NCBI GenBank assembly: GCA_049199595.1
Contig: JBMCYV010000003.1
Span: forward strand, 28,421 to 92,420
Reading direction: 5' to 3'
DNA length: 64,000 nucleotides
DNA from: Candidatus Nitrosomirales archaeon
GTDB lineage: Archaea; Thermoproteota; Nitrososphaeria; Nitrososphaerales; UBA213
The notes beneath the pieces were generated by a model that saw nothing but the letters and a program-made list of their open reading frames with translations, searched no databases and was not told the origin of the DNA. The position numbers were made by a program, and so were the translations under genes. This document shows, piece after piece, positions 12,629 through 63,984 of the stretch; the stretch's first letter is position 1; the number at the start of each line of letters is the position of its first letter.

Positions 12629-12793
12629 TTTTTCATAAGATTTGGTACGGGTTGTAACTCAAGTTATAGATTCTAGCAATAGAATCTGTTGTATGGTTTT
12701 ATGGTTTTCAAGTCATAGTAATGATGACATGGATAATTGTAAAGCAAATTACATACAGCTTAATAGCCTAGCGTGATTTTACTGTTCTCAGAG

Positions 12794-13645
12794 ATGGAAA
12801 CGTACGCTAAGAGACTAAAGTACTCAGGAATAAGTCTGGGTGCTGTATTGATCATGGCATTTGTTCTAGTTCAACCTATAATGAATCAAGCATACTCTGT
12901 TGGTGTACAAGGACTTCCAGCCTATGATGATTGTGAGTTGAGAGGAGTAACAGAAATAATTAATGGTGGGAGTAAACCAACCCAGCCCGAAGATCCAATA
13001 TCAATGAATACTGTTAGAAACCAGAATATTGTGAAGACTATACATGCAGAGAAGGAGATCTTTGACTGCAGATTAAACCAAGGAAATCTACGTGTGATAG
13101 TTGATGTTACCACCTATATTGAATTATACGAAAATATTGCTGATAGAGAAGTTATAGCTTCAAGCGCTGTAGCAGTAACATGTATCAAGGATGAAGGTAC
13201 TGCCACAGTGATTGATTGCGAGTCAAAACCAATTTCGTCAAGCCCGGTACCTGTTGGGAGTGACTGCGTAGAATTGAACTATATCACGCATCCACAAGAA
13301 ATGAATACGGTGACCAAAGGTGCAACAGCAAAGACAATAGAGGCACAGAAAGAAGTATTCATCTGCCCGCTAGGGGATCCGATAAGAGAGCTGGGAGTAG
13401 ACGCACAAGGGGAAGTATGTGGCGATGCCATTCCATTCGAGTGTTTCCCAACGCTTAAGAAAGTAGAGGTAATCCTATTCACTGAAGTATACGAGAACTT
13501 AGCAACACAGACAGTTACAGAAGTGCAGTTCCATTCTATGCGATGTGTAGTCTTGATCACTAACGATCACTTTAATGAAGATCCAGAGGACGATGTCCAA
13601 GACGCAACGGTGGAATCATGCAAGTTATCAACCATCGAAAACTAA
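12794..13645 (+). CDS. Secreted Cys-patterned two-module protein, family copy 3
   Basis: The ORF track starts at 12773. The ATG at 12794 (METYAKRLKYSG..) aligns with the family starts and is preceded by AGAG. It contains module A (EDPISMNTVRNQNIVKTIHAEKEIFDC), module B (HPQEMNTVTKGATAKTIEAQKEVFIC) and the C-terminal VESCKLSTIEN. A 28-aa loop insertion adds two extra Cys. Confidence 0.85.
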   Translation: METYAKRLKYSGISLGAVLIMAFVLVQPIMNQAYSVGVQGLPAYDDCELRGVTEIINGGSKPTQPEDPISMNTVRNQNIVKTIHAEKEIFDCRLNQGNLRVIVDVTTYIELYENIADREVIASSAVAVTCIKDEGTATVIDCESKPISSSPVPVGSDCVELNYITHPQEMNTVTKGATAKTIEAQKEVFICPLGDPIRELGVDAQGEVCGDAIPFECFPTLKKVEVILFTEVYENLATQTVTEVQFHSMRCVVLITNDHFNEDPEDDVQDATVESCKLSTIEN

Positions 13646-13662: not shown

Positions 13663-14211
13663 CTATTTTTGCGCATATAACCTTACAATGTCCGCAACAG
13701 TAGCATTACTTTTTCCTTGGCTGATCAATTCTATTGTATCGCCAGCTCCAACCATACCTTCCCGCAATACTGCCAGATAAAACCCAGTGCGACCACTGGC
13801 CAAAAAACGTTTGACCATATCAGCTCGTCCGAATTTGATCCCTAGCTTGTAGCACGGCAGTCTTGGTTGTGTAACTTTCAGTTCAGCAGTTCCTATGCGA
13901 AAACGATCGCCAATCTTAACTTTATCTTCCATCAATCCTTCTGTTGTAAAGTTTTCCCCGAACATCCCCCATGGTAGTTTCATGTTAGGTAATTTCTGTC
14001 GCCAGTATTCGTAATGTTCTTTAGGATACACGTATACGGCTTTGTCGGCACCTCCATGCACAGACAGATCTGCTTGCTTATCACCATCAATGTTGAGTCT
14101 ACGCAGCATGACTCGTCCTTTAACTGGTTCTTTGAAGATCCCCGTTGTTATGGTTCTGTTTTTCAAGGTCACTTCGCGTGGAGTTCCTACATTAAGGGAA
14201 ACAAGTTTCAT
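13663..14211 (-). CDS. MOSC domain protein (YiiM-like)
   Basis: MKLVSLNVGTPREV ... DLSVHGGADKAVYVYP ... GENFTTEGL ... VTQPRLPCYKLG. The ORF track extends to 14247, but the internal ATG at 14211 fits family N-termini. Confidence 0.85.
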   Translation of the reverse strand: MKLVSLNVGTPREVTLKNRTITTGIFKEPVKGRVMLRRLNIDGDKQADLSVHGGADKAVYVYPKEHYEYWRQKLPNMKLPWGMFGENFTTEGLMEDKVKIGDRFRIGTAELKVTQPRLPCYKLGIKFGRADMVKRFLASGRTGFYLAVLREGMVGAGDTIELISQGKSNATVADIVRLYAQK

Positions 14212-14378
14212 TGTAGATAATGTATTATGGTCCCCACTAACTTGCATGCTATTGCTTATGCTATATACGTTAAATTTGTTTTTCTAATTCTGTTCCATTT
14301 AGCGAGAATCATTGAGCATGCACCGAATGAGAAACTCAGAAGATATTAATAAGATGTTACACACATAGAGTTTTAGCA

Positions 14379-14936
14379 ATGATAATGTCTTTGAATAAAA
14401 AAGGTAGTCCAATGAAAATAGTTCTTGGAATGATTGCATCGGTATTGCTTCTATCTGTCTTTACAGTTCCGGCCTTTGCACACCATGCAGACGATAGTAA
14501 CAAGCCGACGATCAACATACCTTCCGATGGTTCCCATTATCTCCTAGATATCAACGGCGTAGCGCACATAGTTGGAACTCCTGATTATAAACCAGTTTCG
14601 GGTAAGCTGGAATGGGTTGTTGTAAGCGTTAAAACTTATGGCGTGCCGCAGTTCGGCTTTCAGCTTGTCTCTGGTGAGCTAACGATGGACGATACTACTT
14701 ATTCTTTGGACAGAGGAGTAATGAATATTCAAGTACAACGGATTCTATTGGAAGCTGCCGGAAGCGAATTGCACGATTTAGACATGTTTGCAACACTAGC
14801 AGGTCCTCTGCCGCTGTCTACGGAAGATGAGCCAGTAGTGGTTGTACCAGGTCAGGACAGGAAATCGGCAACGATGCGGATCGGAGCAGATAACTGGATA
14901 CTGGATTTTGACGCTACAATTGCTATGACGGCATAA
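14379..14936 (+). CDS. Secreted hypothetical protein
   Basis: 185-aa ORF with a signal peptide (MKIVLGMIASVLLLSVFTVPAFA/HH). No motif was recognised. Confidence 0.5.
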   Translation: MIMSLNKKGSPMKIVLGMIASVLLLSVFTVPAFAHHADDSNKPTINIPSDGSHYLLDINGVAHIVGTPDYKPVSGKLEWVVVSVKTYGVPQFGFQLVSGELTMDDTTYSLDRGVMNIQVQRILLEAAGSELHDLDMFATLAGPLPLSTEDEPVVVVPGQDRKSATMRIGADNWILDFDATIAMTA

Positions 14937-15080
14937 CCTGAACGCCAGCCGCGCGAACTAGAATATTTTTTAACGATAGTTAGTTGTGTAACTCACTGCT
15001 AGGTTATGGAAGCCGATTTGGCATGGAATTGGATAACATTTGGGGAAATCATTAAATCCCTAAATCAGAAACTAGGAACC

Positions 15081-15554
15081 ATGAAGAAAAAAATAATCGC
15101 ACCAATAATTGCAGCGATAGTGGTGATAGCTACATATCCACTATATTCACCGCTGTTCATAAATGCAGTAGTTGACGAACCATTACCGGAAAAGATGACG
15201 GCAACTGAACCTACTACAGCATTGAGAGGAAACTTTGTAGGAGTAAATGACGGAATACACAATGCTGAAGGCATAGCGAAGATACTTACGGCAAGTGACG
15301 ATCAAACCATGCATCGAGTACTGCGCTTAGAGAACTTCAAGGCAACCAACGGTCCTGATCTATATGTGTACCTGTCCAAAGATGGAACAAGCATAAACGA
15401 TGGATACGTTAACTTGGGAAGACTGAAGGGCAACATTGGAAATCAGAACTACGACATACCGGAGGATGCTAATCTAGAGGAATATGACAATGTACTGATA
15501 TGGTGCAAGATGTTTTCTGTGCTGTTTGGCCACGCAGAGTTGAAAGCCGCATAA
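15081..15554 (+). CDS. DM13 domain protein, N-terminally anchored
   Basis: MKKKIIAPIIAAIVVIA anchor, then a DM13-like pattern: G.F.GVNDGIHNAEG ... LENFKATNGPDLYVYLS ... LG.LKGNIGNQNYDIP ... VLIWCKMFSVLFGHA. The ORF track starts upstream at 15006. Confidence 0.7.
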   Translation: MKKKIIAPIIAAIVVIATYPLYSPLFINAVVDEPLPEKMTATEPTTALRGNFVGVNDGIHNAEGIAKILTASDDQTMHRVLRLENFKATNGPDLYVYLSKDGTSINDGYVNLGRLKGNIGNQNYDIPEDANLEEYDNVLIWCKMFSVLFGHAELKAA

Positions 15555-15556
15555 CC

Positions 15557-15563
15557 TTTTTTT
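15557..15563 (+). terminator. Oligo-T tract after the DM13 gene
   Basis: A T7 run lies 3 nt after the stop codon. Archaeal RNA polymerase terminates at oligo-T tracts (established knowledge). Confidence 0.35.
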
Positions 15564-15661
15564 CTTACTTGCGGCAGATCATGGAGACCATCAAGATTTG
15601 GGTCAGATCTGGACAAAAGATGGAAAAATGAATTTAACTTATCCATAGCGAACTAGCAGGC

Positions 15662-15844
15662 ATGACAAGCATGATGGATGAGATAATTGAAGAAGCTGCG
15701 AAGAGGTACAGCAAAATGCCCTTAATAGAGTTACTCGCGGAAGAGAACCTGATGGCAAGATTGTTGTATATAGGAAGGCATGATAATACGGCGAAGAGAT
15801 TGCATACAATACTACGTTCAGAGTTAGAACGTAAGCTACGCTAG
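15662..15844 (+). CDS. Small hypothetical protein, paralog A of a 60-65 aa pair
   Basis: YSKMPLIELLAEENLMARL...LRSELERKLR aligns with YRKMSLTELLTEENTVQRA...LHKELDKKLR of 19312..19509. Conservation between the two supports that both are coding. Confidence 0.45.
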   Translation: MTSMMDEIIEEAAKRYSKMPLIELLAEENLMARLLYIGRHDNTAKRLHTILRSELERKLR

Positions 15845-15956
15845 ATGGAGGAAGAGAATCTAAATTGAGATGCCTTTCACGTGTAGGATCGATATCTAAG
15901 CAAATGTTGGATCAGAAGAAGATTAGTGTAAGTTATGGTATAGATCTAATGGGTGC

Positions 15957-17573
15957 TTGGAAGTGACAGACGGAAGAAAGTACTTTATGCTAGGTTTCGC
16001 GGTAGGAGGCGTATCCCTCATAATCTCATTTCTTCTTAGAGTCTTTGCTGGGGGGTTATTCATTCCTGAGCTTGCTGCTCAGACCATATTCTCGCTAATG
16101 CCTGGAGTGTTAGAGTCCCAGGCAGTGGAGACATTGGGGCCTTTGGCAAAACAACTGACATTCGCAGGTGCGATCGTCGGTAACCTGTTTCTTTACGGAG
16201 AGCTTGGTGTATTACTGCATGGAACATATAGGAAACTAGCTGACAAAGGATATTTTGTAAATATCGTACAATTGTCACTCTTATCATATTTGGTTCTATT
16301 TGCAATAGCCGGAATAATGTTGGAGGTTACACAATTTCAAAGCCAACCTCTTCCTATTTCTCTTATAGCTCTTTACTTACTTCCGCCACACATTGCCTTT
16401 GGTTTCATCTTGTATTTGAAGTTCCGACGAGAAATTGCTAGATCAGAATCTATCAAACAAATAAGCACTGGATTGCAAAGTGAAACTGATCTTGGAAGAA
16501 GAAAATTCCTTAACATAGCTGTAGCAGGTGCGGTTGGAGCGGCAATCCTGTTTTTTGGAGCCGGTTTTCTGTTTCCCAAATCTGCGAAATCGCCAGATCA
16601 AGGATCTCAGCAGGCAGAACCTTCCAATTCTGAGGATAAATCTGAAAACGTGGCTCTTGCCTCGCTTCTTGTTTCGGAAGTTACTCCCACTGATCGGTTC
16701 TACAGAGTGGATGTGAATATTTTAACTCCAGCCATTAACGGTAATGCTTGGAAGCTTAGCATCAGAGGGTTGGTAAACAATCCTTTGGAGGTTGCATATG
16801 AAGAGTTAAAGTCACTACCTGCTGTAGAAGAGTACGCTACCCTCGAATGCATTAGCAACAAGATAGGAGAAGATCTGATTAGTACTGCTCAATGGAGAGG
16901 CGTTCCCCTGAAAACTATACTTGAGAAGGTTCAGGTTAGACCTGAAGCAACTTACGTTGTCTTCAAATGTTATGATGGCTACGATGTAGGAATACCTCTA
17001 GAGCGAGCTGAAGGAACTATTTTGGCTTACGAAATGAATGCGGTCGCTCTTCCCCAAGCACATGGATTTCCATTGAGAGCTGTTGTTCCTGGTCTCTACG
17101 GGATGATGAATGCAAAATGGATAACGGATATAGAACTGGTCGACATGGTCTATGAAGGATTCTGGCAGAGGCAAGGGTGGGCCAACAACGCTGAATATCA
17201 AATACATTCTACAATAGTTAGTCCTGGGCGAGCTCTAACAGCACGGTTCGGCGACCTTAGCTCCTCAAAACTTGTGCTTGGAGACAAAGTGCCGATAGCT
17301 GGCATAGCTTTTGCGGGAGATAAAGGTATATCAAAAGTAGAGCTTAGCATGGATGAAGGAAAGACTTGGGAAGCAGCTAGAATAACGGAATCGCTTTCAA
17401 AGAACACTTGGGTTCTATGGAGCACTGAATGGAGTCCGCCAGCTGCAGGAAAATATAGGATCGTTGTTAGGGCAACTGACGGAACTGGAAAGCTTCAGAA
17501 ATCAGAACTTCAAAACCCATTTCCAAGCGGTTCAACAGGTTATCACGGAGTCAATATAACGGTAGAAGCATAG
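15957..17573 (+). CDS. Sulfite-oxidase-family molybdopterin oxidoreductase (MsrP/YedY-like) fused to an N-terminal polytopic membrane domain
   Basis: The C-terminal part carries Mo-domain motifs: FYRVD, TLECISN, WRGVPL, HGFPLRAVVPGLYGMMNAKW and a dimerisation/Ig-like tail. The N-terminal ~180 aa contain about five hydrophobic segments. These are followed by an internal twin-arginine-like motif, GRRKFLNIAVAGAVGAA. Confidence 0.85.
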   Translation: MEVTDGRKYFMLGFAVGGVSLIISFLLRVFAGGLFIPELAAQTIFSLMPGVLESQAVETLGPLAKQLTFAGAIVGNLFLYGELGVLLHGTYRKLADKGYFVNIVQLSLLSYLVLFAIAGIMLEVTQFQSQPLPISLIALYLLPPHIAFGFILYLKFRREIARSESIKQISTGLQSETDLGRRKFLNIAVAGAVGAAILFFGAGFLFPKSAKSPDQGSQQAEPSNSEDKSENVALASLLVSEVTPTDRFYRVDVNILTPAINGNAWKLSIRGLVNNPLEVAYEELKSLPAVEEYATLECISNKIGEDLISTAQWRGVPLKTILEKVQVRPEATYVVFKCYDGYDVGIPLERAEGTILAYEMNAVALPQAHGFPLRAVVPGLYGMMNAKWITDIELVDMVYEGFWQRQGWANNAEYQIHSTIVSPGRALTARFGDLSSSKLVLGDKVPIAGIAFAGDKGISKVELSMDEGKTWEAARITESLSKNTWVLWSTEWSPPAAGKYRIVVRATDGTGKLQKSELQNPFPSGSTGYHGVNITVEA

Positions 17574-17580
17574 AAATTAT

Positions 17581-38178: not shown

Positions 38179-38631
38179 GTGAATAGTATGGTGGCGGACA
38201 AACCTGACATAAAGAAAATATTGGTTCCTCTAGATGGTTCCGAAACATCGTTCAAGACTGCAAGGCACGCACTTGCACTAGCGAAGAAGGAAAACGCGGC
38301 GGTAATGCTGTTGCACGTTAGTCAGATCCCACCATTTCCTAAATATCTGAAATCGCTCGATAAGTACCAGAAAGAAGTTCGAAGCCGTGCGGAGGAATGG
38401 TTCAGCAAGATAATGAACTTTCCAGAAAGTGCTGGTGTTGACATTAAGACCAGAGTTATTACTGCAGCCACATCAATTATAGGAACCATAGCAGAGGTTG
38501 CTGAAAATGAAGATATCGATCTTATCGTCATGGGTCCAAGAGGTATATCCAAGTTCTCAAAGTTATTACTGGGAAGCGTAACTAGTGGCGTTGTGAACCA
38601 TGCTCCATGTTCTGTTCTGGTTGTAAAGTAA
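38179..38631 (+). CDS. Universal stress protein (UspA family), paralog 2
   Basis: KKILVPLDGSETSFKTARHALALA ... DLIVMGPRGIS ... LLGSVTSGVVNHAPCSVLVV. It is collinear with 8951..9394 over its full length. Confidence 0.9.
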   Translation: MNSMVADKPDIKKILVPLDGSETSFKTARHALALAKKENAAVMLLHVSQIPPFPKYLKSLDKYQKEVRSRAEEWFSKIMNFPESAGVDIKTRVITAATSIIGTIAEVAENEDIDLIVMGPRGISKFSKLLLGSVTSGVVNHAPCSVLVVK

Positions 38632-38699: not shown

Positions 38700-39554
38700 A
38701 TGCAACAGTATTTGGAACTCAAAGCAAAGGACGTGAGCAGGAAACCGATCAAGCTTGAACCAAACAAGACTCTTTATGATGCACGCAATGCCATGCTCAG
38801 ATACAATATCAGTAGAATTGTGATTGCCAAGGATAGCAAGCCCTTGGGAATCATTACAGAGAAGGATATTGCAAGATTTCTATACAGAGAAACTCCAAAC
38901 AGAAGGCTTGACGAGATCAGGCTAGACCAGGCTATGAGTACAGATTTGATAACTGTTGATGAGGATAGTGACCTGAGAAAATGTGCAAAGTTGATGCTAG
39001 ACAAAGAGATCAGCTCTCTAATCGTTACAAATAACAAAGGCATGCTCAAGGGCATACTCACTAAAAGTGATCTTGCAGATACGTATGCGAGACATTATGT
39101 GGGGAAGAATTTGGTTTCAGATTACATGATTAGACCTGTCCACACCGTAGCACCAGACGAGACAACTCATATGGTCCTGACGCTAATGACCAACAATAAC
39201 GTGTCAAGGGTCGTGGTAGTAAGAAACAAGAAACCAGTTGGAATCATTACAGGACGTGATTTGCTACCGATGAGCGCATTATTGGGCGCAGACACATATG
39301 AAACAATCAGGAAAGCATTTCGTTCAACCAGGCAGGGGGAGATGATTGTGCCTTCGGGAATCAGCGCAGTCTTCCTCGCAAGGGATGTTATGAAACACGA
39401 TCCAATAACGATTAGCAAAGACTCTGACTTGGCCGAAGCCGCACAAATAATGACAACAAATAGAATAAGCGGACTTCCAGTTGTAGATTCCAACGATCAG
39501 TTGGTCGGTATAGTTACAAAAACTGACATAGTTAGAGCATTAGCTAATAAGTAA
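38700..39554 (+). CDS. Four-CBS-domain protein
   Basis: Four CBS repeats end in RIVIAKDSKPLGIITEKDI, SLIVTNNKGMLKGILTKSDL, RVVVVRNKKPVGIITGRDL and GLPVVDSNDQLVGIVTKTDI. Confidence 0.85.
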   Translation: MQQYLELKAKDVSRKPIKLEPNKTLYDARNAMLRYNISRIVIAKDSKPLGIITEKDIARFLYRETPNRRLDEIRLDQAMSTDLITVDEDSDLRKCAKLMLDKEISSLIVTNNKGMLKGILTKSDLADTYARHYVGKNLVSDYMIRPVHTVAPDETTHMVLTLMTNNNVSRVVVVRNKKPVGIITGRDLLPMSALLGADTYETIRKAFRSTRQGEMIVPSGISAVFLARDVMKHDPITISKDSDLAEAAQIMTTNRISGLPVVDSNDQLVGIVTKTDIVRALANK

Positions 39555-40971: not shown

Positions 40972-41343
40972 GTGTCCAAGATCGAAAGTGTTAAGGAAGG
41001 ATTCAACGTACCTTCTGATCTATCCCTAGCGGGTGGAATAATCATAGTGCTAGCGGGAATAGCTTCATGGATTTGGCACACAGCATTCTTTTCGCAGATG
41101 AGTTGGATGATGGGCGGACCATGGTTCAACGCCATGATCGCAGGTACTTCCATAATTGGAATAGTTTCTGGCACACTGGTGATATTAGGTGCTCTCATGA
41201 TCGGTTTTAGGCCGCATGAAAGCCACATGTGGGGAGTAATGGTGCTGGTATTCTCCCTGCTTAGTATATTCGGAATGGGAGGTTTCTTGGTAGGTGCAGT
41301 TCTAGGGATAATAGGAGGTTCAATAGCGCTGACAAAGCGCTAA
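40972..41343 (+). CDS. Small integral membrane protein (about four TM segments)
   Basis: Four hydrophobic stretches are present (GGIIIVLAGIASWIW; AMIAGTSIIGIVSGTLVILGALMIGF; WGVMVLVFSLLSIF; FLVGAVLGIIGGSIAL). GTG start. Confidence 0.5.
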   Translation: MSKIESVKEGFNVPSDLSLAGGIIIVLAGIASWIWHTAFFSQMSWMMGGPWFNAMIAGTSIIGIVSGTLVILGALMIGFRPHESHMWGVMVLVFSLLSIFGMGGFLVGAVLGIIGGSIALTKR

Positions 41344-41364: not shown

Positions 41365-41658
41365 ATGTCATTGAAGCATGAAAGAGAACCATTGATGGAT
41401 GTAATTAGTTTAGATGATGCAGTTATAGTCATAGCCGAAATTCCAAGTGTCAGCAAGGAACACATCAGGGTCACTGCAACAGAAAATAATATTACTCTAG
41501 ATACAGAAACTCCCGAAAGAAAGTATCATAAGGAAACTGAATTGCCAGAAGCAATAGAACCAAACAGTGCCAAATCGACTTACAGGAATGGTATATTAGA
41601 AATAACTTTTAAGAGAAGGAAGAAGAAAGAATCAGGTGTATCAATCAAGGTTGAGTGA
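41365..41658 (+). CDS. Short Hsp20/alpha-crystallin-domain protein
   Basis: DVISLDDAVIVIAEIPSVSKEHIRVTATENNITLD...YHKETELPEAIEPNSAKSTYRNGILEITFKRRKK matches the ACD pattern (V..dLPG......I.v......L.I......F.r...LP..vd....a.y.nGvL.i..pK). Confidence 0.65.
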   Translation: MSLKHEREPLMDVISLDDAVIVIAEIPSVSKEHIRVTATENNITLDTETPERKYHKETELPEAIEPNSAKSTYRNGILEITFKRRKKKESGVSIKVE

Positions 41659-41843: not shown

Positions 41844-43313
41844 CTATTCTTCAAGTTCCTGTATGAACTGGCCATGCCACCAGTGGTACCATATGTCTCC
41901 AGTGAAGCCATTTACACTAAGCATGCCAGATATCTTTCCATCCTTTTCCGTATGCACCGTATAGTATCCATAGAACTGATCAACATCTTCTACGCTAGTT
42001 CCTGCAAAGTTTGTGTCAAGATATGATTGAGCTAAAGACTCAGCTTTATCTTTTGTTATTGTCATTCCTGTTGTTAGCTGGAACTGCATCATGCTATACT
42101 TTGCGTTCCACATCATGTTCGGTCCTGGTTCAGGATGCATTATACCAGTCATCATTGCTCCTGCGGTATCTTTCCACACAACCATCTCGAATGCTCCTAC
42201 GTTAGTATCCTTCTCATATACTATGAAGTAAAAATTCCTCTCGAACTCCAGAATGTCCTTAATTGCAAGATTTGGATCATTAAGTGTCTGGACAAAGTCC
42301 TCTGCTTCTTTCTTAACATTTTCAATTGTTAATGGTTGCACTGTCTGTATGTTCATCATTCCCATAGAACCCATCGGCCATGTTTGATTCCACATCATCG
42401 ATCCCATCATTACAGGACCCATTCCCTTCCATCCCATCATTCCGGGCCCCATCATGCCTTGACCCATCATGGGTCCCATCATCTGTCCCATCATGGGACC
42501 TTGCATCATGTCTTGGCCAGCAAATGGACCCATCATCATCGGACCCATAAAGCCGAATCCACCTCCACCCATCATTGGTTCCATACCCATCATGCCTTGC
42601 GCCTGGTGCATGCTTGACATGTATTTCTGCATCAGTGCCATACCTTGACTCATGTTATTGATTCCCTGCATCATCATGGGCATATTTTGTTGACCCATCA
42701 TTCCTTGATTTTGCATATTCATCATCGTCTGCCTTCCCTGCATCATTGCATTTGCAGCATCAAGCATGTTTTGACGAGATTGCATCATGTTGTTGAAGCC
42801 CTGCATCATTGGGTCGCTAGCAGAAGGTGGCAGCTGCATCTGCTGCATCCCGTTCGATCCTTGTTGCATCATATCAAAGCCCTGCTGCATCATAGTAGAA
42901 CCTAAATTCATCATAGCATTTCCTCGCGTTGCATTCTGTGCCATCATATCTTGCGCTTGCAACATCATGTTTGATCCTTGTTGCATCATGGCCGCTCCCT
43001 GCATGAACGAAGACGAAGACTGTGTAAAACCCATCATGGATTCAAGAGTTGGAGTACCCGAAGTTTGAGTACCAGTTGTAGCTTTCAAACTGGCAACCTC
43101 AGCCTGCAACGAGTTTATCTGGTTCTGCTGATTTTGTAATTGTTGCTGTAGAGGTACACTAAGAATACCATATCCAATTCCCAAACCTATAAGGAATACA
43201 CCTACAGCAATTCCGATTATTAGCCCCTTGTTATTCACGGTGTCTTTTGAACTAATAATAGGTATTAAACTTATTCCACGTTTTTTAATACTGGTAATTG
43301 CATTTTTCATCAA
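41844..43313 (-). CDS. Membrane-anchored, extremely Met/Gln/Gly-rich protein with two C-terminal PepSY-like domains
   Basis: 489-aa ORF. It has an N-terminal TM segment (LIIGIAVGVFLIGLGIGYGIL) and a Q-rich coiled segment. Residues 91-320 contain 68 Met by hand count, mostly as MM dipeptides (MMQQG, MMGP, PMMM). The C-terminal ~165 aa hold two PepSY-like units (..AFEMVVWKD..; ..GMLSVNGFTGDIWYH). Confidence 0.8.
   Translation of the reverse strand: MMKNAITSIKKRGISLIPIISSKDTVNNKGLIIGIAVGVFLIGLGIGYGILSVPLQQQLQNQQNQINSLQAEVASLKATTGTQTSGTPTLESMMGFTQSSSSFMQGAAMMQQGSNMMLQAQDMMAQNATRGNAMMNLGSTMMQQGFDMMQQGSNGMQQMQLPPSASDPMMQGFNNMMQSRQNMLDAANAMMQGRQTMMNMQNQGMMGQQNMPMMMQGINNMSQGMALMQKYMSSMHQAQGMMGMEPMMGGGGFGFMGPMMMGPFAGQDMMQGPMMGQMMGPMMGQGMMGPGMMGWKGMGPVMMGSMMWNQTWPMGSMGMMNIQTVQPLTIENVKKEAEDFVQTLNDPNLAIKDILEFERNFYFIVYEKDTNVGAFEMVVWKDTAGAMMTGIMHPEPGPNMMWNAKYSMMQFQLTTGMTITKDKAESLAQSYLDTNFAGTSVEDVDQFYGYYTVHTEKDGKISGMLSVNGFTGDIWYHWWHGQFIQELEE
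42354..43040 (-). repeat. Low-complexity ATG-rich coding tract (Met-rich region of 41844..43313)
   Basis: Dense ATGATG / CATCAT content generates the His-rich antisense ORFs in the track (42336..42617, 42645..42905, 42787..43068). Confidence 0.8.
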
Positions 43314-43490
43314 TACTCTTTGATTGATAGTCTAGCGCTAACATAGTTTTCAATAGTGAAAATCGTGTCAGGATTAATTAGAAGGACAACGAAATAAGTG
43401 GTGTTGCAAGAACATCGACGAATTCAAAATGAGCTCTGCCAATTGCACATCGATAATCTTAAGACATAGTAAAACAGGATGAAATGTTGT

Positions 43491-43946
43491 ATGTACAAAA
43501 AGATCCTTGTTCCAATAGATGGTTCTAAAATGGCACATAAAGCATTCAAGCATGCATTGTCTATTGCCAAAGCATTCAATGCACAGATTATTTTGCTGAC
43601 GGTAATTCCAGAAAATGTCGTACCTGCGGGTGCTTATAGGACATGGACCCATCCATCAATGGTAAGGCGCAGTGTACATGAAATAATAACAATAGCACGA
43701 GAGGAAGCTACCGACTTTCTGACCGAAAGTATGAAAGAATGTGAGAAGAGAGAAGTGAAGGCATCATATAAAATATCCACGGGCGATACTGCGTCAATAA
43801 TAATCGAAACTGCTGACAAGAAAAAAGTAGATTTGGTTGTTATGGGGAGTGTTGGATTAACAGGTATTAAAAAATTCAAAGCTTTGGGAAGTGTCTCTAG
43901 GAAAGTATCTGAGAATGTGTCATGTCCTACACTTATAGTTCGCTAG
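43491..43946 (+). CDS. Universal stress protein (UspA family), paralog 3
   Basis: MYKKILVPIDGSKMAHKAFKHAL ... DLVVMGSVGLTG ... LGSVSRKVSENVSCPTLIV. Confidence 0.85.
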   Translation: MYKKILVPIDGSKMAHKAFKHALSIAKAFNAQIILLTVIPENVVPAGAYRTWTHPSMVRRSVHEIITIAREEATDFLTESMKECEKREVKASYKISTGDTASIIIETADKKKVDLVVMGSVGLTGIKKFKALGSVSRKVSENVSCPTLIVR

Positions 43947-45245: not shown

Positions 45246-47270
45246 CTACACTTTGGTCAGATTAACGGCCGTCCATTTGTAGCAAGGGGTCTTGGCCGAC
45301 GAATCTAGGCAACCACCGGTGACATAGTTGACTTTACCACCGTGCATAGGCGCAAAAAACATGCCCTTTCTCACCGCATTGGTTATCTTTACATTCAGAA
45401 CAACCTGACCAAACCTTGATTTCATTAGAGCATGATCTCCTTCTTTCAATCCTATATTTTCCGCATCATCAGGATTTACTTCCACATAATTTATGTCCGT
45501 CCCAGGAATAAGAAGACGTTCAGATTTGCTAGTCATTATATCAGTATTGTACCTAGAGATGACCCTACCCGTTGTAAGCACAAAAGGAAACTCGTCTGTA
45601 GTGAGTTGAACAGGTAAGTACTCTACTGCAGTGAATTTGGCTCTACCATCCGGAGTATGAAATCTTTCCGTAAAGAGCACATCGGTGCTACTACCATCAA
45701 CAAGAGGATAACGAACCTCAGAATTTCTTGACAGTATATCCCAAGTAATGCCAGAATAAGGTTTTACAACGTGACTAATTTCCTCCAGAACATCTCGCGG
45801 TGAAGCATAATTGAATTCATGGTATCCAAAGTATTTCGCTAGCTCAATCAGGATCCGCCAATCGGGCTTAGTTTCGCTTACGGGATCCAACAACTGTCTT
45901 CTCCATTGCACGGTTCTGTCCATGTTCGTCATAGAACCTTCTCTTTCCAACCAAGAGGCGGCGGGAAGAACGTAGTGAGCCATTGCAGCCGTAGCACTCA
46001 TGAAGATATCCTGAACAACCAAAAGTTCAAGCGATGACATGGCCTTTTCTGTTACTGTTCTATTAGGAAGGCTGTGAATTGGATTGAATCCCATAATGTA
46101 TAAGCCCTTGATTTCACCGTCAACAGCTTTCGAGATCATTTCCATCATAGTGATTCCCATCTTACTAGGAACTTTGAAACCCCAAATTTCTTCAAGGGCT
46201 TTTGCGTTAGTTTGATCTACTGGCATCCCACCGGGAAAGAATTCCGAAGAAGCACCAACATCACCTGCACCCTGTACATTAGCTTGACCTCTTAGTGGAC
46301 AAACTCCTGTACCAACCCTCCCATAATTTCCTGTTAGCAGCGCAAGATTGATAGCTGCTGCAACCGCGTCAGTTCCTTGGGCTTGTTCTGTAATGCCAAT
46401 TCCCACAAGAATCAATGAACCTCCGGAGGTGGCGTAAAGTCTTGCAGCCTGTAGAACAAGAACAGGTTCGATCTCGATTATCTTTGCTACCTTCTCAGGA
46501 GTGTATTTCTCTACTGAATTCCGAAACTCTTCATAATCATTCGTTCTCTTGTTAATGAACTCCTTATTCTCAAGACCTTCGTTAATAATCACATTTGCAA
46601 TGGCATTTAATAACGCTATGTCAGTGCCAGGCGCAACCTTGAGGTGAAGATCTGCAAATTTAGCAAATGATGGACCTCTAGGATCTACGTCGATCACCTT
46701 TGCACCTCTGTTCTTGGCTTCCATAACATATTGAGTAAGAATTGGGTGAGAGTCAGCCAAACTTGAACCGATGAAGAGAAGCAACTTCGAATCCTTCATG
46801 CTGCTCATTGTAGTGCTAGCCGCACCAAATCCTACCGCGCGCTTGAGTGCGTGAACAGAGGGTTGATGGCAGAGCCTTGCACAACTTTCCACATTGTTAG
46901 TGCCAATCCTCCTCGCTAATTTCTGAATCAGATAATTTTCTTCATTGGTACACAAACAGCCTCCGGAGAAACCTAGAGCATCTGCGCCATGCTTCTCTAT
47001 AATTTTTTTGATATGTGAAGCTATTTCTGATAAAGCTTCAGACCATGATGTTCTCTCGAAGGAATCACCTCTTCTTTTCAAAGGATGGGTCAATCGGTCT
47101 TTTGAACGAAGTATATCAAGAGCTGCAAATCCTTTTGCACAAAGATGTCCCCTACTTACGGGGTGGTCCTTCACTCCCCTGACTTTTGTAGGCACACCAT
47201 CAGAAATTGTAATAGTGATTCCACAACCCACACCACAATATGGACACACAGTTTCTTCTTCTCTCATCAT
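45246..47270 (-). CDS. Molybdopterin (bis-MGD) oxidoreductase, formate-dehydrogenase-alpha-like, Cys type, no Tat signal
   Basis: An N-terminal 4Fe-4S motif is present: CPYCGVGCG...C(AKG). The Cys-His pair in CARLCHQPSV aligns with the SeCys/Cys-His of FdhF-type enzymes. A C-terminal molydopterin-dinucleotide-binding beta-barrel is present (GDHALMKSRFGQV). No adjacent partner subunits were found. Confidence 0.8.
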   Translation of the reverse strand: MMREEETVCPYCGVGCGITITISDGVPTKVRGVKDHPVSRGHLCAKGFAALDILRSKDRLTHPLKRRGDSFERTSWSEALSEIASHIKKIIEKHGADALGFSGGCLCTNEENYLIQKLARRIGTNNVESCARLCHQPSVHALKRAVGFGAASTTMSSMKDSKLLLFIGSSLADSHPILTQYVMEAKNRGAKVIDVDPRGPSFAKFADLHLKVAPGTDIALLNAIANVIINEGLENKEFINKRTNDYEEFRNSVEKYTPEKVAKIIEIEPVLVLQAARLYATSGGSLILVGIGITEQAQGTDAVAAAINLALLTGNYGRVGTGVCPLRGQANVQGAGDVGASSEFFPGGMPVDQTNAKALEEIWGFKVPSKMGITMMEMISKAVDGEIKGLYIMGFNPIHSLPNRTVTEKAMSSLELLVVQDIFMSATAAMAHYVLPAASWLEREGSMTNMDRTVQWRRQLLDPVSETKPDWRILIELAKYFGYHEFNYASPRDVLEEISHVVKPYSGITWDILSRNSEVRYPLVDGSSTDVLFTERFHTPDGRAKFTAVEYLPVQLTTDEFPFVLTTGRVISRYNTDIMTSKSERLLIPGTDINYVEVNPDDAENIGLKEGDHALMKSRFGQVVLNVKITNAVRKGMFFAPMHGGKVNYVTGGCLDSSAKTPCYKWTAVNLTKV

Positions 47271-47711: not shown

Positions 47712-48212
47712 TTATGTTCTATGCGGCTCCGGCCAGACACCCATACCCACCATTTCGAATTCAAATCTTTCTATTAACTGCTTTGGGATCTGGGACGCTC
47801 CCGCAATTTCTTGGATCGATTGTATGTTTCGCAAAACATGTTTGAAGATATCTTTTTCCGTAATGATGCCTACCAGTTTTTCATTTTCAACAACAGGGAG
47901 GTGATTTATGTTCTTTGATGACATCAGATTTAGTACTGTTGACAGGGATGAAGCAGAGCTCACTGTGACAAGTGGGCTGCTCATTACTGATCCCAACCGT
48001 AGCATCAGTGGTCGCTCACGTTCAGATACGATCCTTATCGCGTCCTTCTCCGTAAGAATACCTACTGGCTTGTTCCGTTCATCAACAATTACAACACTGC
48101 TTATCTTATGCTTGGCCATGAGACCAATTGCATATAGAACAGGTTCTGAATCCTTTGCCTGTTTCACATCTCGTATCATTATTTCCGACACAAGTATTGT
48201 TGACAGTGACAT
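47712..48212 (-). CDS. CBS-pair protein
   Basis: Two CBS repeats are present (ISSVVIVDERNKPVGILTEKD; INHLPVVENEKLVGIITEKD). Confidence 0.8.
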   Translation of the reverse strand: MSLSTILVSEIMIRDVKQAKDSEPVLYAIGLMAKHKISSVVIVDERNKPVGILTEKDAIRIVSERERPLMLRLGSVMSSPLVTVSSASSLSTVLNLMSSKNINHLPVVENEKLVGIITEKDIFKHVLRNIQSIQEIAGASQIPKQLIERFEFEMVGMGVWPEPHRT

Positions 48213-48213
48213 G

Positions 48214-48471
48214 CTACTCTTTCTCCCTGTTGATGCGCAGGGGGATAGGTTTTATCACCTTGCTTGCCTGTGATGCTAAATATACTATACCCAAGACAGT
48301 TGTCACAAGCAGCCATAGAAGTAAAAGTACTACAAAGATCGATATATTACTAGAGAGCGAACTTTCTCCATTGCGTGCAGTTGTTGTCAATAAGACTACA
48401 GATCCTACAGCAACGCCTAGCAACGCTAACCAGAAACCTTTCATTTGTGCTAGTATCTCTGATTTGTTCAT
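48214..48471 (-). CDS. Small two-TM membrane protein
   Basis: 85 aa with two hydrophobic helices. Its stop is 1 nt from the start of the downstream CBS gene, which suggests a likely operon. Confidence 0.4.
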   Translation of the reverse strand: MNKSEILAQMKGFWLALLGVAVGSVVLLTTTARNGESSLSSNISIFVVLLLLWLLVTTVLGIVYLASQASKVIKPIPLRINREKE

Positions 48472-48596
48472 TCCTATATCCCTGCAGGTTATGTTTCGTT
48501 AGAATGCGCTTTAAAGCCAGCACACGTTTTCCAGCGTTGATAATCATCTCTGAAAATTACGGAGATTTTATTAGTTCCATTCATACACAATACGTG

Positions 48597-48968
48597 ATGG
48601 CAACACAGGATGTAGATTCAGAATCTTGGGAGAGCAAGGTGGTCAAGTCAGACTTGCCTGTCGTTGTTAACTTCTGGGGTCCTCGTTGCGGGTTCTGCAA
48701 ATGGCTCGAACCGTTATATGAGAAGCTTTCAAATGAATACAGTGGGAAGATCGTATTTCTGAAACTCAATGTGGACGATGAACGTACCCATGGAGTATTG
48801 CATCATGTATCGATCGAAGGAACGCCCACACTGAAATTTTACTGCAAGGGAAGAGAAGTTGGCGAACATGTGGGTTACGCGGTTGAACCAGTCCTGAAAA
48901 AGAAGATAGATTTGATGCTGCAGGAAATGGAATCATGTTTAAAGAACAGCACGCCTCTGAAACGTTAA
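48597..48968 (+). CDS. Thioredoxin
   Basis: From ATG 48597: MATQDVDSESWESKVVKSDLPVVVNFWGPRCGFCKWLEP...KLNVDD...GTPTLKFY. The active site is CGFC. The track ORF starts far upstream at 48375. Confidence 0.85.
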   Translation: MATQDVDSESWESKVVKSDLPVVVNFWGPRCGFCKWLEPLYEKLSNEYSGKIVFLKLNVDDERTHGVLHHVSIEGTPTLKFYCKGREVGEHVGYAVEPVLKKKIDLMLQEMESCLKNSTPLKR

Positions 48969-55479: not shown

Positions 55480-56229
55480 ATGGAAATGAACACAACAAAC
55501 AGACTAGAGAAACCAAAGTACTTAGCAATAAGTGCAGCAGCACTACTTGTCACAGCATTCGTTCTGGTACAGCCAACTATGCAGACAGCATACGCTGTTG
55601 GTATAGAGGGACTTCCAGCCTATGACAACTGTGCTCCTCGACACGAAACTTTACCTGAAGATCCAATATCCATGAACACCGTAAGGAACAAAGACGTGGT
55701 GAAGACCATACACGCAGAGAAGGAAATCTTCGACTGCCTCCTGACTCAGGGCGCACTCCGAGTCATAGTTGATCTGACAACATACTTGGAAGTATACGAG
55801 AACATTACTTCACAAGAAGTCATAGCGACAAATGCCTTCGCGACAACCTGTATGAAAGACCAAAATACTGCTACAGTAATAGACTGCGAATCAGCTGATG
55901 TGGAATCGAGTCCAGTCTTTGTAAACAACTGCGTCGAAGTAACAAGCTTCGAATTCACGCACCCACAAGAGATGAACACAGTGAACAAGGGCAAAATCGC
56001 AAAGACAATAGAAGCACAGAAAGAGGTCTTCTTCTGTCACCTCAATGATGGTACTCTAAAGAAAGTAGACATTGTACTATTCACAGAGGTATATGAAGAT
56101 CTGAACACACAGACAACATTCCCAGTACAATTCCTTTCAGCAAGATGTGTAGTGCTCGTTACTGACAATGGCGGAGATCTACAAGACGGCGAAGTAGAGT
56201 CCTGCATCTTCAGCGAGATCGAGAACTAA
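55480..56229 (+). CDS. Secreted Cys-patterned two-module protein, family copy 5 (near-minimal form)
   Basis: It has a signal/anchor (YLAISAAALLVTAFVLVQPTMQTAYA), module A (EDPISMNTVRNKDVVKTIHAEKEIFDC), module B (HPQEMNTVNKGKIAKTIEAQKEVFFC) and the C-terminal VESCIFSEIEN. Confidence 0.85.
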   Translation: MEMNTTNRLEKPKYLAISAAALLVTAFVLVQPTMQTAYAVGIEGLPAYDNCAPRHETLPEDPISMNTVRNKDVVKTIHAEKEIFDCLLTQGALRVIVDLTTYLEVYENITSQEVIATNAFATTCMKDQNTATVIDCESADVESSPVFVNNCVEVTSFEFTHPQEMNTVNKGKIAKTIEAQKEVFFCHLNDGTLKKVDIVLFTEVYEDLNTQTTFPVQFLSARCVVLVTDNGGDLQDGEVESCIFSEIEN

Positions 56230-60426: not shown

Positions 60427-61422
60427 ATGAATATTCGGATGCAATTAAAATCACCTCTCGCGTACATTCTCCTCATTATTCTCAGCCTTGGCGCCGTATC
60501 ATACGGTTTCTTAGCTGGAGATGATCTTGGTAGGGCAGTCGATGTTTATGGCTTATCCTTGACAGATGATGATCAAGGTGATGATGATCAGGGTGATAAT
60601 GAAGACGATCATGATGATGACGAAGATGGTGATGAAATTCCAGATAACGAAGATCCTGACGATGATAATGATGGTATTGATGATATAGACGAAGACGACG
60701 ATAATGATCAGGTACCAAACAATGAAGACGAAGACGACGACGGCGATGGCGTCTTGGACCCCGATGAAGATGATGATGAGGATGGTCTGCCAAACAATGA
60801 AGACCCAGATGACGACGGCGACGGTCTTAACGACGTGGATGAAGACGAGGATAATGATCAGGTACCAAACAATGAAGACCCAGACGATGATGGCGATGAT
60901 ACATCGGATGCAAAGGAGGACGATGATGATGACGATATACCTGACATAGATGATCCTGACGACGATGGCGACGGTCTTCCAGATGTTGATGAAGATGATG
61001 ATGGCGATGGCGTACCAAACAATGAGGATAATGATGACGATGGTGATGGAACGGAGGACGAAGACGAGGGAAGTCCTAACGACGATGAAATAATAGGCAC
61101 CAAGGGAGCTGATACAATATCAGGGAGTGCAGGAGATGACTCTCTGGACGGCGCAAATCGCAAGGACACGATCAATGGAGGCGACGGTGACGATACAATA
61201 TTTGGAGGCAATGGAAAGGACATACTATCTGGCGGCAATGGTGATGATACAATCGATGGCGGTAATGGGAGGGACACGATCGATGGAGGCGACGGTGACG
61301 ATACAATATTTGGAGGCAATGGAAAGGACACTATCGATTGTGGTGATGGGAATGATACGGCAGATGGCGGCCGTGGAAATGATATCTTCATAAACTGTGA
61401 AACCATAATTGATGAAACTTAA
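60427..61422 (+). CDS. Secreted, highly acidic calcium-binding repeat protein: thrombospondin type-3-like repeats followed by RTX (hemolysin-type) nonapeptide repeats
   Basis: It has a signal/anchor (LAYILLIILSLGAVSYGFLAG). About eight D-rich units follow (NNEDPDDDGDGLNDVDEDEDNDQVP). About nine GGxGxD-type repeats come next (GGDGDDTIFGGNGKDILSGGNGDDTIDGGNGRDTIDGG...). Confidence 0.8.
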   Translation: MNIRMQLKSPLAYILLIILSLGAVSYGFLAGDDLGRAVDVYGLSLTDDDQGDDDQGDNEDDHDDDEDGDEIPDNEDPDDDNDGIDDIDEDDDNDQVPNNEDEDDDGDGVLDPDEDDDEDGLPNNEDPDDDGDGLNDVDEDEDNDQVPNNEDPDDDGDDTSDAKEDDDDDDIPDIDDPDDDGDGLPDVDEDDDGDGVPNNEDNDDDGDGTEDEDEGSPNDDEIIGTKGADTISGSAGDDSLDGANRKDTINGGDGDDTIFGGNGKDILSGGNGDDTIDGGNGRDTIDGGDGDDTIFGGNGKDTIDCGDGNDTADGGRGNDIFINCETIIDET

Positions 61423-61518: not shown

Positions 61519-62157
61519 GTGAATTCTAGGTCGCTCGTTATTGGTTCGATAGCTGTGGGCATAGCGATAGGATACATAGCTGGCTTTCTTACATACTACA
61601 ACGCATTGAGCGACGTGGAGAGCACGAATGCTACTGCGATGCAGAGCGAACTTGATAACCTGAAGGGCGAACTCGAAAAATCCAATGTGCGCTTGTCGGT
61701 ATTGAACGATGACAACGAAAAACTAAGGACAAGTCTGTCACAAATACGCGCAGATAACGAAGCTCTGCGGAAGAGCGTCGATTCCTTGCAAAAATCTATC
61801 GAGCCTAACGGTTCGCTGGCAAGGATCGAGCGCGGCATGAACTTGCTTTACATGGCATCCGAGCCCATGCCTTTTGCCGGTCAGGAACTCGTCGCCTGGC
61901 GACTATCGGTAGTTAACGAAACCGCGAAACTTGATCCAGCACTAGTGCCTACCATGCTTACTCTAGTCGACGCATGGTCCGACATAGTGCAGTTCGAGGA
62001 GAACGAGCCGGAACCCGATACGGATGCATGGAACCAATGGAATATCGAATGGCAGGTCAAGGCCCTGAAGTATATAGCAGCATACAATTCTGCCGTGTCA
62101 CAGATAATTGCGGTAATAATTCACGATGTAGATTCGCTGAAGGCTTCCCTTCCCTAG
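61519..62157 (+). CDS. N-terminally anchored coiled-coil hypothetical protein
   Basis: It has a TM segment (LVIGSIAVGIAIGYIAGFLTY) and heptad-like LDNLKGELEKSNVRLSVLNDDNEKLRTSLSQIRADNEALRKSVDSLQKS. GTG start. Confidence 0.45.
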   Translation: MNSRSLVIGSIAVGIAIGYIAGFLTYYNALSDVESTNATAMQSELDNLKGELEKSNVRLSVLNDDNEKLRTSLSQIRADNEALRKSVDSLQKSIEPNGSLARIERGMNLLYMASEPMPFAGQELVAWRLSVVNETAKLDPALVPTMLTLVDAWSDIVQFEENEPEPDTDAWNQWNIEWQVKALKYIAAYNSAVSQIIAVIIHDVDSLKASLP

Positions 62158-63126: not shown

Positions 63127-63984
63127 ATGGAAGTCAGAGCAAGGAGACTAAAGTACTCGGGAATAGCTTTAGGTGCAGTATTGATAATGGCGTTCGTTCT
63201 AGTGCAACCAACAATGCAGACAGCCAAAGCAGTAGGTGTAGAAGGACTTCCAGCATATGATGATTGCTACTTGAGCGGAGTAACACTTGGGGGTACAGTA
63301 ACTTCAACCACGACAACAACAACGACAACAACTACAACGACTACAACTACGATGGGGCAGCCTGAAGATCCAATATCAATGAACACTGTCAGAAATGGGA
63401 ACATTGTAAAGACCATTCATGCGGAGAAAGAGATCTTCACATGCCATCTTGACCAAGGTGATCTACCAATCATAGTAGATGTTACAACATATCTGGAGAT
63501 ATACGAAAACATTGCTGATAGAGAAGTCGTAGAAACCAACGCTATAGCAGTGACCTGTCTTAAGGATGAATTCACTGCAGCAGTGATTGACTGCGAATCA
63601 TATGAAGTCCCGACAACTCCAGTGCCAGTAGGTAGCAACTGCGAAGAGCTTGACTATATCACACACCCGCAAGAGATGAACACAGTTAACAAGGGCAAGA
63701 TCGCAAAGACAGTAGAATCACAGAAAGAGGTATTCTTATGTTTGCTGGATGGTGAGGTGATCTGCTTTACAAAACTAGTACAATGCACTAACACAATCAA
63801 GAAAGTAGATGTAATCCTGTTCACTGAAACATACGAGGATCTAGCAACACATGAAATAACAGATGTGCAATTCCAGTCAGCGCGATGTGTAGTTTTGATT
63901 ACTGACGAGCAGCTACAGGAGCCTGACAACGACTTGAGAGACGCCACAGTCGAGACCTGCCAGTTCTCAAGCATCGAAAACTAA
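63127..63984 (+). CDS. Secreted Cys-patterned two-module protein, family copy 6 (with poly-Thr linker)
   Basis: It has the signal GIALGAVLIMAFVLVQPTMQTAKA and a T-S-T15 linker. Module A is EDPISMNTVRNGNIVKTIHAEKEIFTC and module B is HPQEMNTVNKGKIAKTVESQKEVFLC. A loop insertion with two extra Cys is present, and the C-terminus is VETCQFSSIEN. Confidence 0.85.
   Translation: MEVRARRLKYSGIALGAVLIMAFVLVQPTMQTAKAVGVEGLPAYDDCYLSGVTLGGTVTSTTTTTTTTTTTTTTTMGQPEDPISMNTVRNGNIVKTIHAEKEIFTCHLDQGDLPIIVDVTTYLEIYENIADREVVETNAIAVTCLKDEFTAAVIDCESYEVPTTPVPVGSNCEELDYITHPQEMNTVNKGKIAKTVESQKEVFLCLLDGEVICFTKLVQCTNTIKKVDVILFTETYEDLATHEITDVQFQSARCVVLITDEQLQEPDNDLRDATVETCQFSSIEN
63301..63351 (+). repeat. Poly-threonine coding tract (ACN codons)
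   Basis: act tca acc acg aca aca aca acg aca aca act aca acg act aca act acg. Synonymous codons are mixed, so the repeat is maintained at the protein level rather than as a pure trinucleotide microsatellite. Confidence 0.85.

Follow-up and report, generated by a model that had tools for sequence, protein, structure and literature searches.

In oxidising compartments methionine is the ligand of choice for Cu(I), and sites built from Met alone, or from Met, His and Trp, function there and bind Cu(I)/Ag(I) in CusF, CusB, CusA, CopC/PcoC and Ctr1. The Met-rich inserts of CueO and PcoA reach a local Met density of about 30%, SilE and PcoE require HxxM/MxxH motifs, and the copper storage proteins Csp1 and Csp3 are four-helix bundles with a Cys-lined core. 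Proteins with two PepSY domains make up another group of extracytoplasmic metal binders: UipA of Microbacterium is a single-pass membrane tandem-PepSY protein which binds U and Fe and adjoins UipRS (Gallois et al. 2021, as recounted in PMC8963506), and LanP (lanpepsy) of Methylobacillus flagellatus is a periplasmic two-PepSY lanthanide-binding protein (PMC11845868). Here we describe a methionine-rich gene on the reverse strand of a 64,000-nucleotide stretch of DNA (the whole of which we call the window; contig JBMCYV010000003.1 of assembly GCA_049199595.1, positions 28,421 to 92,420) from a Candidatus Nitrosomirales archaeon, whose product we class as a variant within these known kinds, the metal-binding membrane PepSY proteins and the Met-rich Cu(I) binders. 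Judged by sequence comparison, the gene is real, conserved and under purifying selection, and by homology its product is a lineage-specific, expanded member of a large, unnamed and uncharacterised tandem-PepSY family; no description of a Met-rich tandem-PepSY family was found in the literature searched. Because genes for copper/silver export and metal sensing adjoin members of the family in many genomes, we tentatively read the protein as an extracytoplasmic binder or buffer of soft metals (Cu(I)/Ag(I)), and give this reading somewhat less than an even chance.

The gene was seen as a 489-codon open reading frame (ORF) with a TTG start at 41844..43313 (-), the sole long ORF at that position in the ORF list of the window, and residue numbers throughout follow this ORF, not the 464-aa coding sequence given below. 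The true start is probably GTG 43238, as six orthologs from Nitrososphaerales metagenome-assembled genomes (MAGs), 68-79% identical over the alignment, begin at the equivalent of codon 26 (MNNKG/VNNK), and as a TTTAATA box upstream is kept in one ortholog locus (L001). The two loci have in common both this box and GTGAATAAC at the GTG; in L001 the box lies within TTTAATAT at an equal distance before GTGAATAAC, and the sequence farther upstream is unrelated to the window. The gene and the parts of its product are as follows:

41844..43238 (-): likely coding sequence of 464 aa, GTG start at codon 26, stop codon 41844-41846; the maximal ORF reaches TTG 43313
43263..43270 (-): putative archaeal TATA box TTTAATAC, about 27-31 nt 5' of GTG 43238
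43155..43223 (-): single N-terminal transmembrane anchor, residues 31-53, LIIGIAVGVFLIGLGIGYGILSV, seen in the sequence and as a helix in the AlphaFold2 (AF2) model
43044..43157 (-): Gln-rich coil and Thr/Gly/Ser spacer, residues 53-90, helical in the AF2 model to about residue 76
42594..43043 (-): tract A, a Met/Gln-rich MM-x5 heptad region, residues 91-240, 38 Met in 150 aa
42354..42593 (-): tract B, Gly/Pro/Met low complexity (GPMMG, MMGQ), residues 241-320, 30 Met in 80 aa
42126..42338 (-): PepSY-like unit 1, residues about 326-396, a helix and 3-4 strands in the AF2 model, Foldseek matches 4exr and 5boi
42105..42134 (-): PEPGPNMMWN, the family hallmark between the PepSY units, with M400, M401, W402 and N403 invariant
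41847..42065 (-): PepSY-like unit 2, residues 417-489, with the motifs FYGYY (447-451), GMLS (463-466) and H477-x-W479-H480

If the putative TATA box acts as a promoter element, its distance from GTG 43238 would imply a leaderless or short-leader mRNA; a scan for sigma-70 promoters and terminators was uninformative, the host being an archaeon. Small contigs from an oligo-dT soil metatranscriptome are 90-95% identical to 43065-43291 and to the intergenic region and start of the neighbouring universal stress protein (Usp) gene; these are directionless, possibly DNA, and come from a relative, and we take them as weak evidence of RNA, short of proof of transcription. Three His-/Cys-rich ORFs of 86-93 aa on the opposite strand (42336-42617, 42645-42905 and 42787-43068) were rejected as genes, because the reverse complement of ATG is CAT and these frames are an antisense mirror of an ATG-rich coding strand.

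Residues 91-320 contain 68 Met in 230 positions (29.6%), with one His and no Cys, and the whole 489-residue protein contains 80 Met, 5 His and no Cys, with 29 Met runs of the form MM or MMM. The mean Met content of the remaining 65 ORFs in the window is 2.68%, and the binomial probability of at least 68 Met in 230 residues is about 4e-50. Our recount agrees with the original prediction, made from the letters of the window and its ORF list, which had counted 68 Met in these residues, described MM and MMM runs with almost no His or Cys, and placed one transmembrane helix and a Gln-rich segment ahead of them (here found at residues 31-53 and 53-90). Its statement that the Met density lies far beyond that of ordinary Met-rich copper proteins was too strong, as about 30% equals the local density of the CueO and PcoA inserts; what is unusual instead is the length of the tract (230 aa) and its total Met (68), which make it several-fold longer than known inserts. 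Scanned against Pfam and NCBIfam, the protein, its Gln-rich segment included, and its C-terminal domain gave only weak, sub-threshold coiled-coil matches (GspM, DivIC, TolA).

The Met-rich region had been taken for a single tract; it is two different things, a heptad-ordered helical part (tract A) and a disordered GPMMG part (tract B). The canonical MxxM/MxxxM spacings are a feature of the second, with 8 MxxM and 12 MxxxM in its 80 aa, and are depleted in the first. Besides its Met, tract A has 28 Gln; hydrophobic residues other than Met are scarce, and every heptad contains Gly or a small residue. Its Met autocorrelation rises at lag 7 (z = 5.5) and lag 14 (z = 3.3) and is depressed at lags 2-5 (z -1.9 to -2.7). 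The AF2 model, built with 15 orthologs, places long helices at residues 90-126, 128-157, 167-202 and 208-241, with a predicted local distance difference test score (pLDDT) of about 70-80, and in Foldseek this model matched up-down four-helix bundles, including the ligand-binding domains of Tsr and PcaY and designed bundles (target TM-score 0.5-0.7). Tract A is thus predicted, with moderate confidence, to form an up-down four-helix bundle; the core of this bundle may consist entirely of Met, or tract A may fold only once a ligand binds. Searched by itself against 1.84 billion representatives, tract A matched only its own ortholog cluster, and so this helical Met module does not appear to be reused elsewhere. 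Tract B, by comparison, is predicted to be disordered (pLDDT 22-35), has many indels and differs in length among orthologs, and is of the GMMG linker type that is present in most family members; by analogy it looks like a canonical Mets-motif arm. A recent DNA expansion was considered as the origin of the Met tract and rejected, as Tandem Repeats Finder gave just short repeats of 12-24 bp, confined to tract B.

These tracts share with CusF, CopC/PcoC, CueO, PcoA, CopA, Ctr1 and SilE/PcoE the use of extracytoplasmic thioether-rich segments, and tract B shares the MxxM/MxxxM spacing of Mets motifs, yet the protein has no homology to any of them. Tract A departs from Mets motifs in its MM-x5 heptad and depletion of MxxM, and the single His in 230 aa sets the tract apart from the HxxM/MxxH design of SilE/PcoE. 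The nearest analogy for tract A is with Csp1/Csp3: in the predicted up-down bundle the core-facing residues would be almost all one sulfur amino acid, with a possible capacity for several Cu(I) ions. The ligand here would however be Met thioether rather than Cys thiolate (there is no Cys), no sequence relationship exists, and the likeness is one of analogy only, with storage hypothetical.

The C-terminal residues 321-489 are modelled with high scores (pLDDT 91.1, predicted TM-score 0.86) as two helix-plus-sheet units, in line with the two PepSY-like units seen earlier from the sequence. The best Foldseek matches in the PDB are 4exr, a tandem-PepSY lipoprotein (probability 0.96), and 5boi, the C-terminal PepSY domains of YpeB (probability 0.99), and FoxB is among the matches too. 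Since the two PepSY units are arranged differently, the global TM-scores stay low (about 0.3). Neither the window protein nor its C-terminal domain matched Pfam PepSY (PF03413/PF14620), even at E <= 10, and an alignment profile searched against all PDB chain sequences at E <= 10 matched an unrelated ribosomal protein only and no PepSY structure. Among 41 aligned relatives (42-80% identity), however, PF03413 was found in 18 (best E = 3.5e-9) and PF14620 (YPEB_PepSY) in 13, from which membership of the PepSY superfamily follows by transitive homology. The alignment of these diverse relatives has 25 invariant columns, which include M400, M401, W402, N403, F447, G449, Y450, Y451, the GMLS motif (G463-S466), H477, W479 and H480; Y448 within FYGYY is nearly invariant. 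The invariant motifs MMW and HxWH are reminiscent of the CusF site (His/Met/Met/Trp).

In layout the protein is similar to UipA, with a single-pass anchor (residues 31-53) followed by a C-terminal PepSY tandem (residues 326-489) that is extracellular in UipA, and the UipRS genes beside UipA find a parallel in the OmpR-type two-component systems present in 16-17 of 80 loci of relatives (see below). It differs in having no detectable sequence similarity to UipA, which is absent from the top 50 Foldseek matches, and in having no two-component system beside the gene; as far as the account in PMC8963506 goes, UipA also presents an acidic face to hard cations, where the present family conserves Met, His, Trp, Tyr and Glu and carries Met-rich arms. 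LanP similarly has two PepSY domains in an extracytoplasmic metal binder, the function proposed here, but it is a soluble protein of about 19 kDa with Glu/Asp ligands for Ln3+ and no Met-rich tract, and no sequence match to it was found.

A full-length search returned at least 1478 clusters at E <= 1e-3, and a scan of one genome per species, using the PEPGPNMMWN motif, retrieved at least 595 family loci. The family occurs mainly in Bathyarchaeia, Chloroflexota, Methanoperedens and Methanophagales, and Nitrososphaerota; one locus each from Rokubacteria, Sulfotelmatobacter (Acidobacteriota) and Rubrobacteraceae was among the 80 loci examined for gene neighbourhood, and a Poribacteria member was found by protein search. 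Outside the close orthologs, the common part is the C-terminal 165 residues, and relatives of about 270-300 aa consist of a signal peptide, lipobox or anchor, a G/M-rich linker and then the domain. At least 8 Met were present in the N-terminal linker of 86 of 119 relatives, and 94 of the 119 had one or more Met-rich segments, placed in the N-linker, in an insert in the hairpin of the first PepSY unit or in the loop between the units; all three positions adjoin the invariant MMW motif. On this sequence comparison, Met-rich segments are a family trait with three independent insertion points. That the tracts face the outside of the membrane is supported by the Sec/lipobox signals of bacterial relatives together with the single N-terminal anchor of the window protein, which agrees with the extracytoplasmic placement anticipated earlier.

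The close orthologs, 68-79% identical, keep the Met tract, and in tract A mean column identity is 86% for Met columns and 69% for the others. Compared with the L001 ortholog, tract A has a ratio of nonsynonymous to synonymous substitution rates (dN/dS) of 0.087, and the corresponding values for tract B and the PepSY domain are 0.108 and 0.113; as dS is near saturation, all three are approximate. Purifying dN/dS and the conservation of Met columns together argue that the tract is a constrained protein sequence and not the debris of replication slippage, and the conservation of the gene that the original prediction had left to a homolog search is borne out.

To compare gene neighbourhoods, the neighbours in the best 80 of at least 595 loci by tblastn were clustered, and hidden Markov models of the clusters were then searched against all 80 loci. 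The recurrent partners, as raw counts of loci, are:

SHOCT small membrane protein: 31/80 loci
ArsR (HTH_5) regulator: at most 26/80 loci, as two clusters of 19 and 7 that possibly overlap
OmpR response regulator: 17/80 loci, mostly Chloroflexota
Histidine kinase: 16/80 loci, mostly Chloroflexota
DUF6114: 15/80 loci, usually directly downstream on the same strand
Membrane-anchored winged helix-turn-helix (wHTH) protein, DUF7343: 11/80 loci
P1B ATPase: 9/80 loci, seven with CPC and MxxSS (six of these with a YHS N-terminus), one CPH-type and one partial
Stand-alone YHS protein: 3/80 loci

At least one of these was present in 70 of the 80 loci. On rough reasoning, about nine Cu-ATPases within 6 kb over 80 loci compare with fewer than one expected by chance. 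For example, in a Nitrososphaera MAG (L002) the family gene adjoins a divergent YHS-P1B ATPase and a YHS mini-protein, whilst in Poribacteria and Rokubacteria it lies within OEP/CusB/CusA-like operons, and in Methanoperedens and another thaumarchaeon the genes after it encode an ArsR HTH_5 regulator and a membrane protein resembling thioredoxin. Relatives are thus encoded in Cus-like operons and beside Cu-ATPases, as known copper-resistance proteins are, whereas the window gene has no such neighbours. DUF6114 was present in five of the six Nitrososphaerota loci and is a conserved neighbour of the family gene in archaea, seen at loci L014, L066, L074, L078 and L092; no literature on DUF6114 was found in our searches. 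Both the DUF6114 and SHOCT partner proteins carry MMG-rich segments of their own, the DUF6114 protein of the window included. A SHOCT membrane protein is silver-induced in Haloferax (PMC10694973). Two conserved, unannotated proteins were also encountered in these loci, a secreted protein of 291 aa in Poribacteria, encoded between CusB and the PepSY gene (L008, 6977-7852), and a 59-aa protein between the ArsR and thioredoxin-like membrane protein genes in Methanoperedens (L004, 7206-7385).

In the window itself, the nearest genes are:

40972..41343 (+): DUF6114 small multi-pass membrane protein (Pfam DUF6114, E = 2.4e-8) with a Met-rich loop, SQMSWMMGGPWFNAM
41365-41658 (+): Hsp20, convergent, 186 bp from the 3' end of the Met-rich gene
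43479-43946 (+): Usp, divergent from the Met-rich gene, with 165-240 bp between the two

The DUF6114 gene lies downstream of the Met-rich gene and is convergent with it, with Hsp20 between the two, and from its recurrence elsewhere we regard DUF6114 as a likely functional partner. Hsp20 and Usp were rejected as partners, as neither recurs beside relatives. Past Usp follow a short-chain dehydrogenase/reductase (SDR), a molybdenum (Mo) enzyme of the bis-pyranopterin guanine dinucleotide (bis-PGD) type, CBS-domain proteins and a thioredoxin.

The idea that the tract is a Cu(I) binder, raised in the original prediction, gains indirect support from the Cu-ATPase, YHS, CusBA-like RND, ArsR and two-component neighbours of relatives, and several results weigh against it. 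The immediate neighbours in the window are Hsp20, Usp, SDR and DUF6114, and no copper gene adjoins there. ArsR neighbours that have a CxC motif are typical of As, Cd and Pb sensors too, and the metal may be one of these. Among the 119 relatives, 25 have no Met-rich segment yet have the PepSY motifs, and no cultured ammonia oxidiser or cultured Nitrososphaera was among the best 80 of at least 595 loci. Tract A, finally, is poor in MxxM/MxxxM spacings and has one His and no Cys, so that any sites there would have to be inter-helical and thioether-only.

From the composition, periodicity, conservation, predicted fold and gene neighbourhoods we infer metal binding, the kind of metal and its hand-off as follows. 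The protein would be a type-II membrane-anchored protein whose entire functional part lies outside the archaeal membrane, and would follow the family design, in which a signal or anchor precedes a Met/Gly-rich arm and a PepSY tandem with invariant MMW, GMLS and HxWH motifs. The thioether-rich arms would capture soft monovalent ions, Cu(I) and probably Ag(I), and would either buffer them or pass them to the conserved Met/His/Trp site of the PepSY tandem, from where they would move to membrane partners; the candidates are DUF6114 in the window, and SHOCT proteins, Cu-ATPases, CusBA pumps and ArsR/two-component sensors in relatives. In the soil Nitrososphaerales clade the arm would have been expanded into a Met-lined helical module of about 150 aa and a disordered GPMMG tract of 80 aa. 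A bolder version, which we think rather improbable, would make tract A an extracellular store or buffer for many Cu(I) ions, built as a Met-lined four-helix bundle, a thioether analogue of the Cys-lined Csp proteins that would suit an oxidising compartment. In this version the tandem PepSY, with its MMW and HxWH motifs, would define a class of extracytoplasmic Cu(I)/Ag(I) chaperones that is both new and widespread, with DUF6114/SHOCT membrane proteins as their partners in archaea as well as in monoderm or diderm bacteria.

Should Cu(I)/Ag(I) binding be true, copper handling would gain a component that is widespread and as yet has no name, in groups whose extracytoplasmic handling of copper is poorly understood (Bathyarchaeia, Methanoperedens and relatives in the anaerobic methanotrophic group ANME-1, Chloroflexota and soil Nitrososphaerales). 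The DUF6114 and SHOCT membrane proteins, which have domains of unknown function, would acquire partners as well, and the use of PepSY tandems as metal modules would extend from hard (U, Fe, lanthanides) to soft cations. The predicted Met-only bundle would be an unusual object and possibly a high-capacity thioether scaffold, of interest for metal recovery and for the folding of Met-only cores. If binding fails, the finding shrinks to a conserved low-complexity surface protein.

The gene neighbourhoods are also compatible with a signalling or regulatory accessory, modelled on the presumed regulation of surface proteins by PepSY domains, in which the PepSY ectodomain would modulate DUF6114, SHOCT, a sensor kinase or the DUF7343 wHTH protein and the Met-rich arm would be a spacer or stress sensor instead of a store of metal. 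Of 25 Chloroflexota loci, 16 have an OmpR response regulator and kinase as a two-component system, and in one bacterial relative a response regulator, a kinase and SHOCT lie upstream of the family gene; the divergent, membrane-anchored DUF7343 wHTH gene is found in four of six Nitrososphaerota and seven of 35 Bathyarchaeia loci; and ArsR-type matches occur in at most 10 of 10 Methano-/Halo-euryarchaeal loci (two clusters of five, possibly overlapping). UipA too adjoins UipRS in the account of PMC8963506, and the domain is kept in the 25 relatives that lack Met-rich arms. Regulation leaves unexplained, however, why about 30% Met should be selected for with Met columns the best conserved, and why Met-rich inserts should recur at three sites; moreover no regulator adjoins the gene in the window, where no two-component system was found between 36 and 49 kb. 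We consider this account unlikely, and it would overlap with the binding of Cu(I)/Ag(I) if the signal were itself a metal.

The surroundings of the gene in the window would suit a sacrificial antioxidant, in which surface Met would scavenge reactive oxygen species, chloramines and reactive nitrogen species outside the cell and be recycled by methionine sulfoxide reductases (Msr). Tract B is rich in solvent-exposed Met, the gene lies among others for the stress proteins Hsp20 and Usp (three copies) and for a thioredoxin (48375-48968), and loci of relatives contain OsmC in 4/80 and thioredoxin-like proteins in 5/80. The original prediction linked the tract in particular to an msrB gene, an 'MsrP-like' Mo enzyme and thioredoxins, and although the first two genes are present in the window neither supports the link: msrB (3949-4350) is 38 kb away and encodes a cytoplasmic protein without a signal sequence, and the Oxidored_molyb enzyme (15957-17573), membrane-anchored and 24 kb away, has a molybdenum cofactor (Mo-co) dimerisation domain, making it SUOX-like (sulfite-oxidase-like) and not MsrP/YedY-like, and is not linked to the Met-rich gene. 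The Mo enzyme nearest to that gene (45246-47270) is of the bis-PGD/Fe4S4 type. No Msr gene recurs beside family members in the 80 loci, and a scavenger needs neither the strict heptad order nor the purifying selection of tract A, and we hold this role to be very unlikely.

Only a slight chance is given to an extracytoplasmic holdase or hydrophobic-ligand binder, in which a flexible 'methionine bristle' of the kind found in the SRP54 M domain and the Met-rich helix of the chloroplast small heat-shock protein would bind unfolded or hydrophobic segments of surface proteins, or to a low-complexity region that would build a matrix or phase-separated layer beneath the S-layer. The amphipathic MM stripe on the predicted helices, the Hsp20 gene 186 bp from the 3' end and a Q/N/G/M-rich composition like that of prion-like low-complexity domains would speak for such a role, but this support is compositional, Hsp20 is cytoplasmic, convergent and not recurrent in relatives, and the neighbours that do recur are metal and regulatory genes.

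The original prediction supposed that the core metabolism of the organism is probably copper-dependent; for the window as a whole, no amo or blue-copper genes were seen among the 25 listed of 59 Pfam families or in the individually scanned ORFs. The window encodes three Usp paralogs (8951-9394, 38179-38631 and 43479-43946, all on the forward strand), and CBS-domain proteins are scattered at 25080-26174, 38700-39554 and 47712-48212. The Oxidored_molyb enzyme lies in a cluster (13663-19122) with a MOSC protein (13663-14247), a protein with a DM13 electron-transfer domain (15006-15554) and a thioredoxin/AhpC-like and NHL-repeat protein (17581-19122). A 212-aa protein at 61519-62157 (+) has the same N-terminal design as the Met-rich protein, an MN-x-[KR]-x-L-[IV]-IG...AVG anchor followed by a coiled coil; a likeness beyond the anchor was rejected, as the BLASTP match is confined to the transmembrane segment (E = 0.002).

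The window also encodes four paralogous secreted proteins, at 427-1164 (-), 12773-13645 (+), 55480-56229 (+) and 63127-63984 (+), with the common N-terminus RLKYSGIALGAVLIMAFVLVQPTMQ ... GVEGLPAYD.C ... PEDPISMNTVRN..VKTIHAEKEIF.C. The two of these scanned individually, 427-1164 and 63127-63984, had no Pfam match, and the latter has a long poly-Thr run. A further secreted protein, at 60427-61422 (+), has RTX calcium-binding repeats after a stretch that is rich in Asp and extremely acidic.

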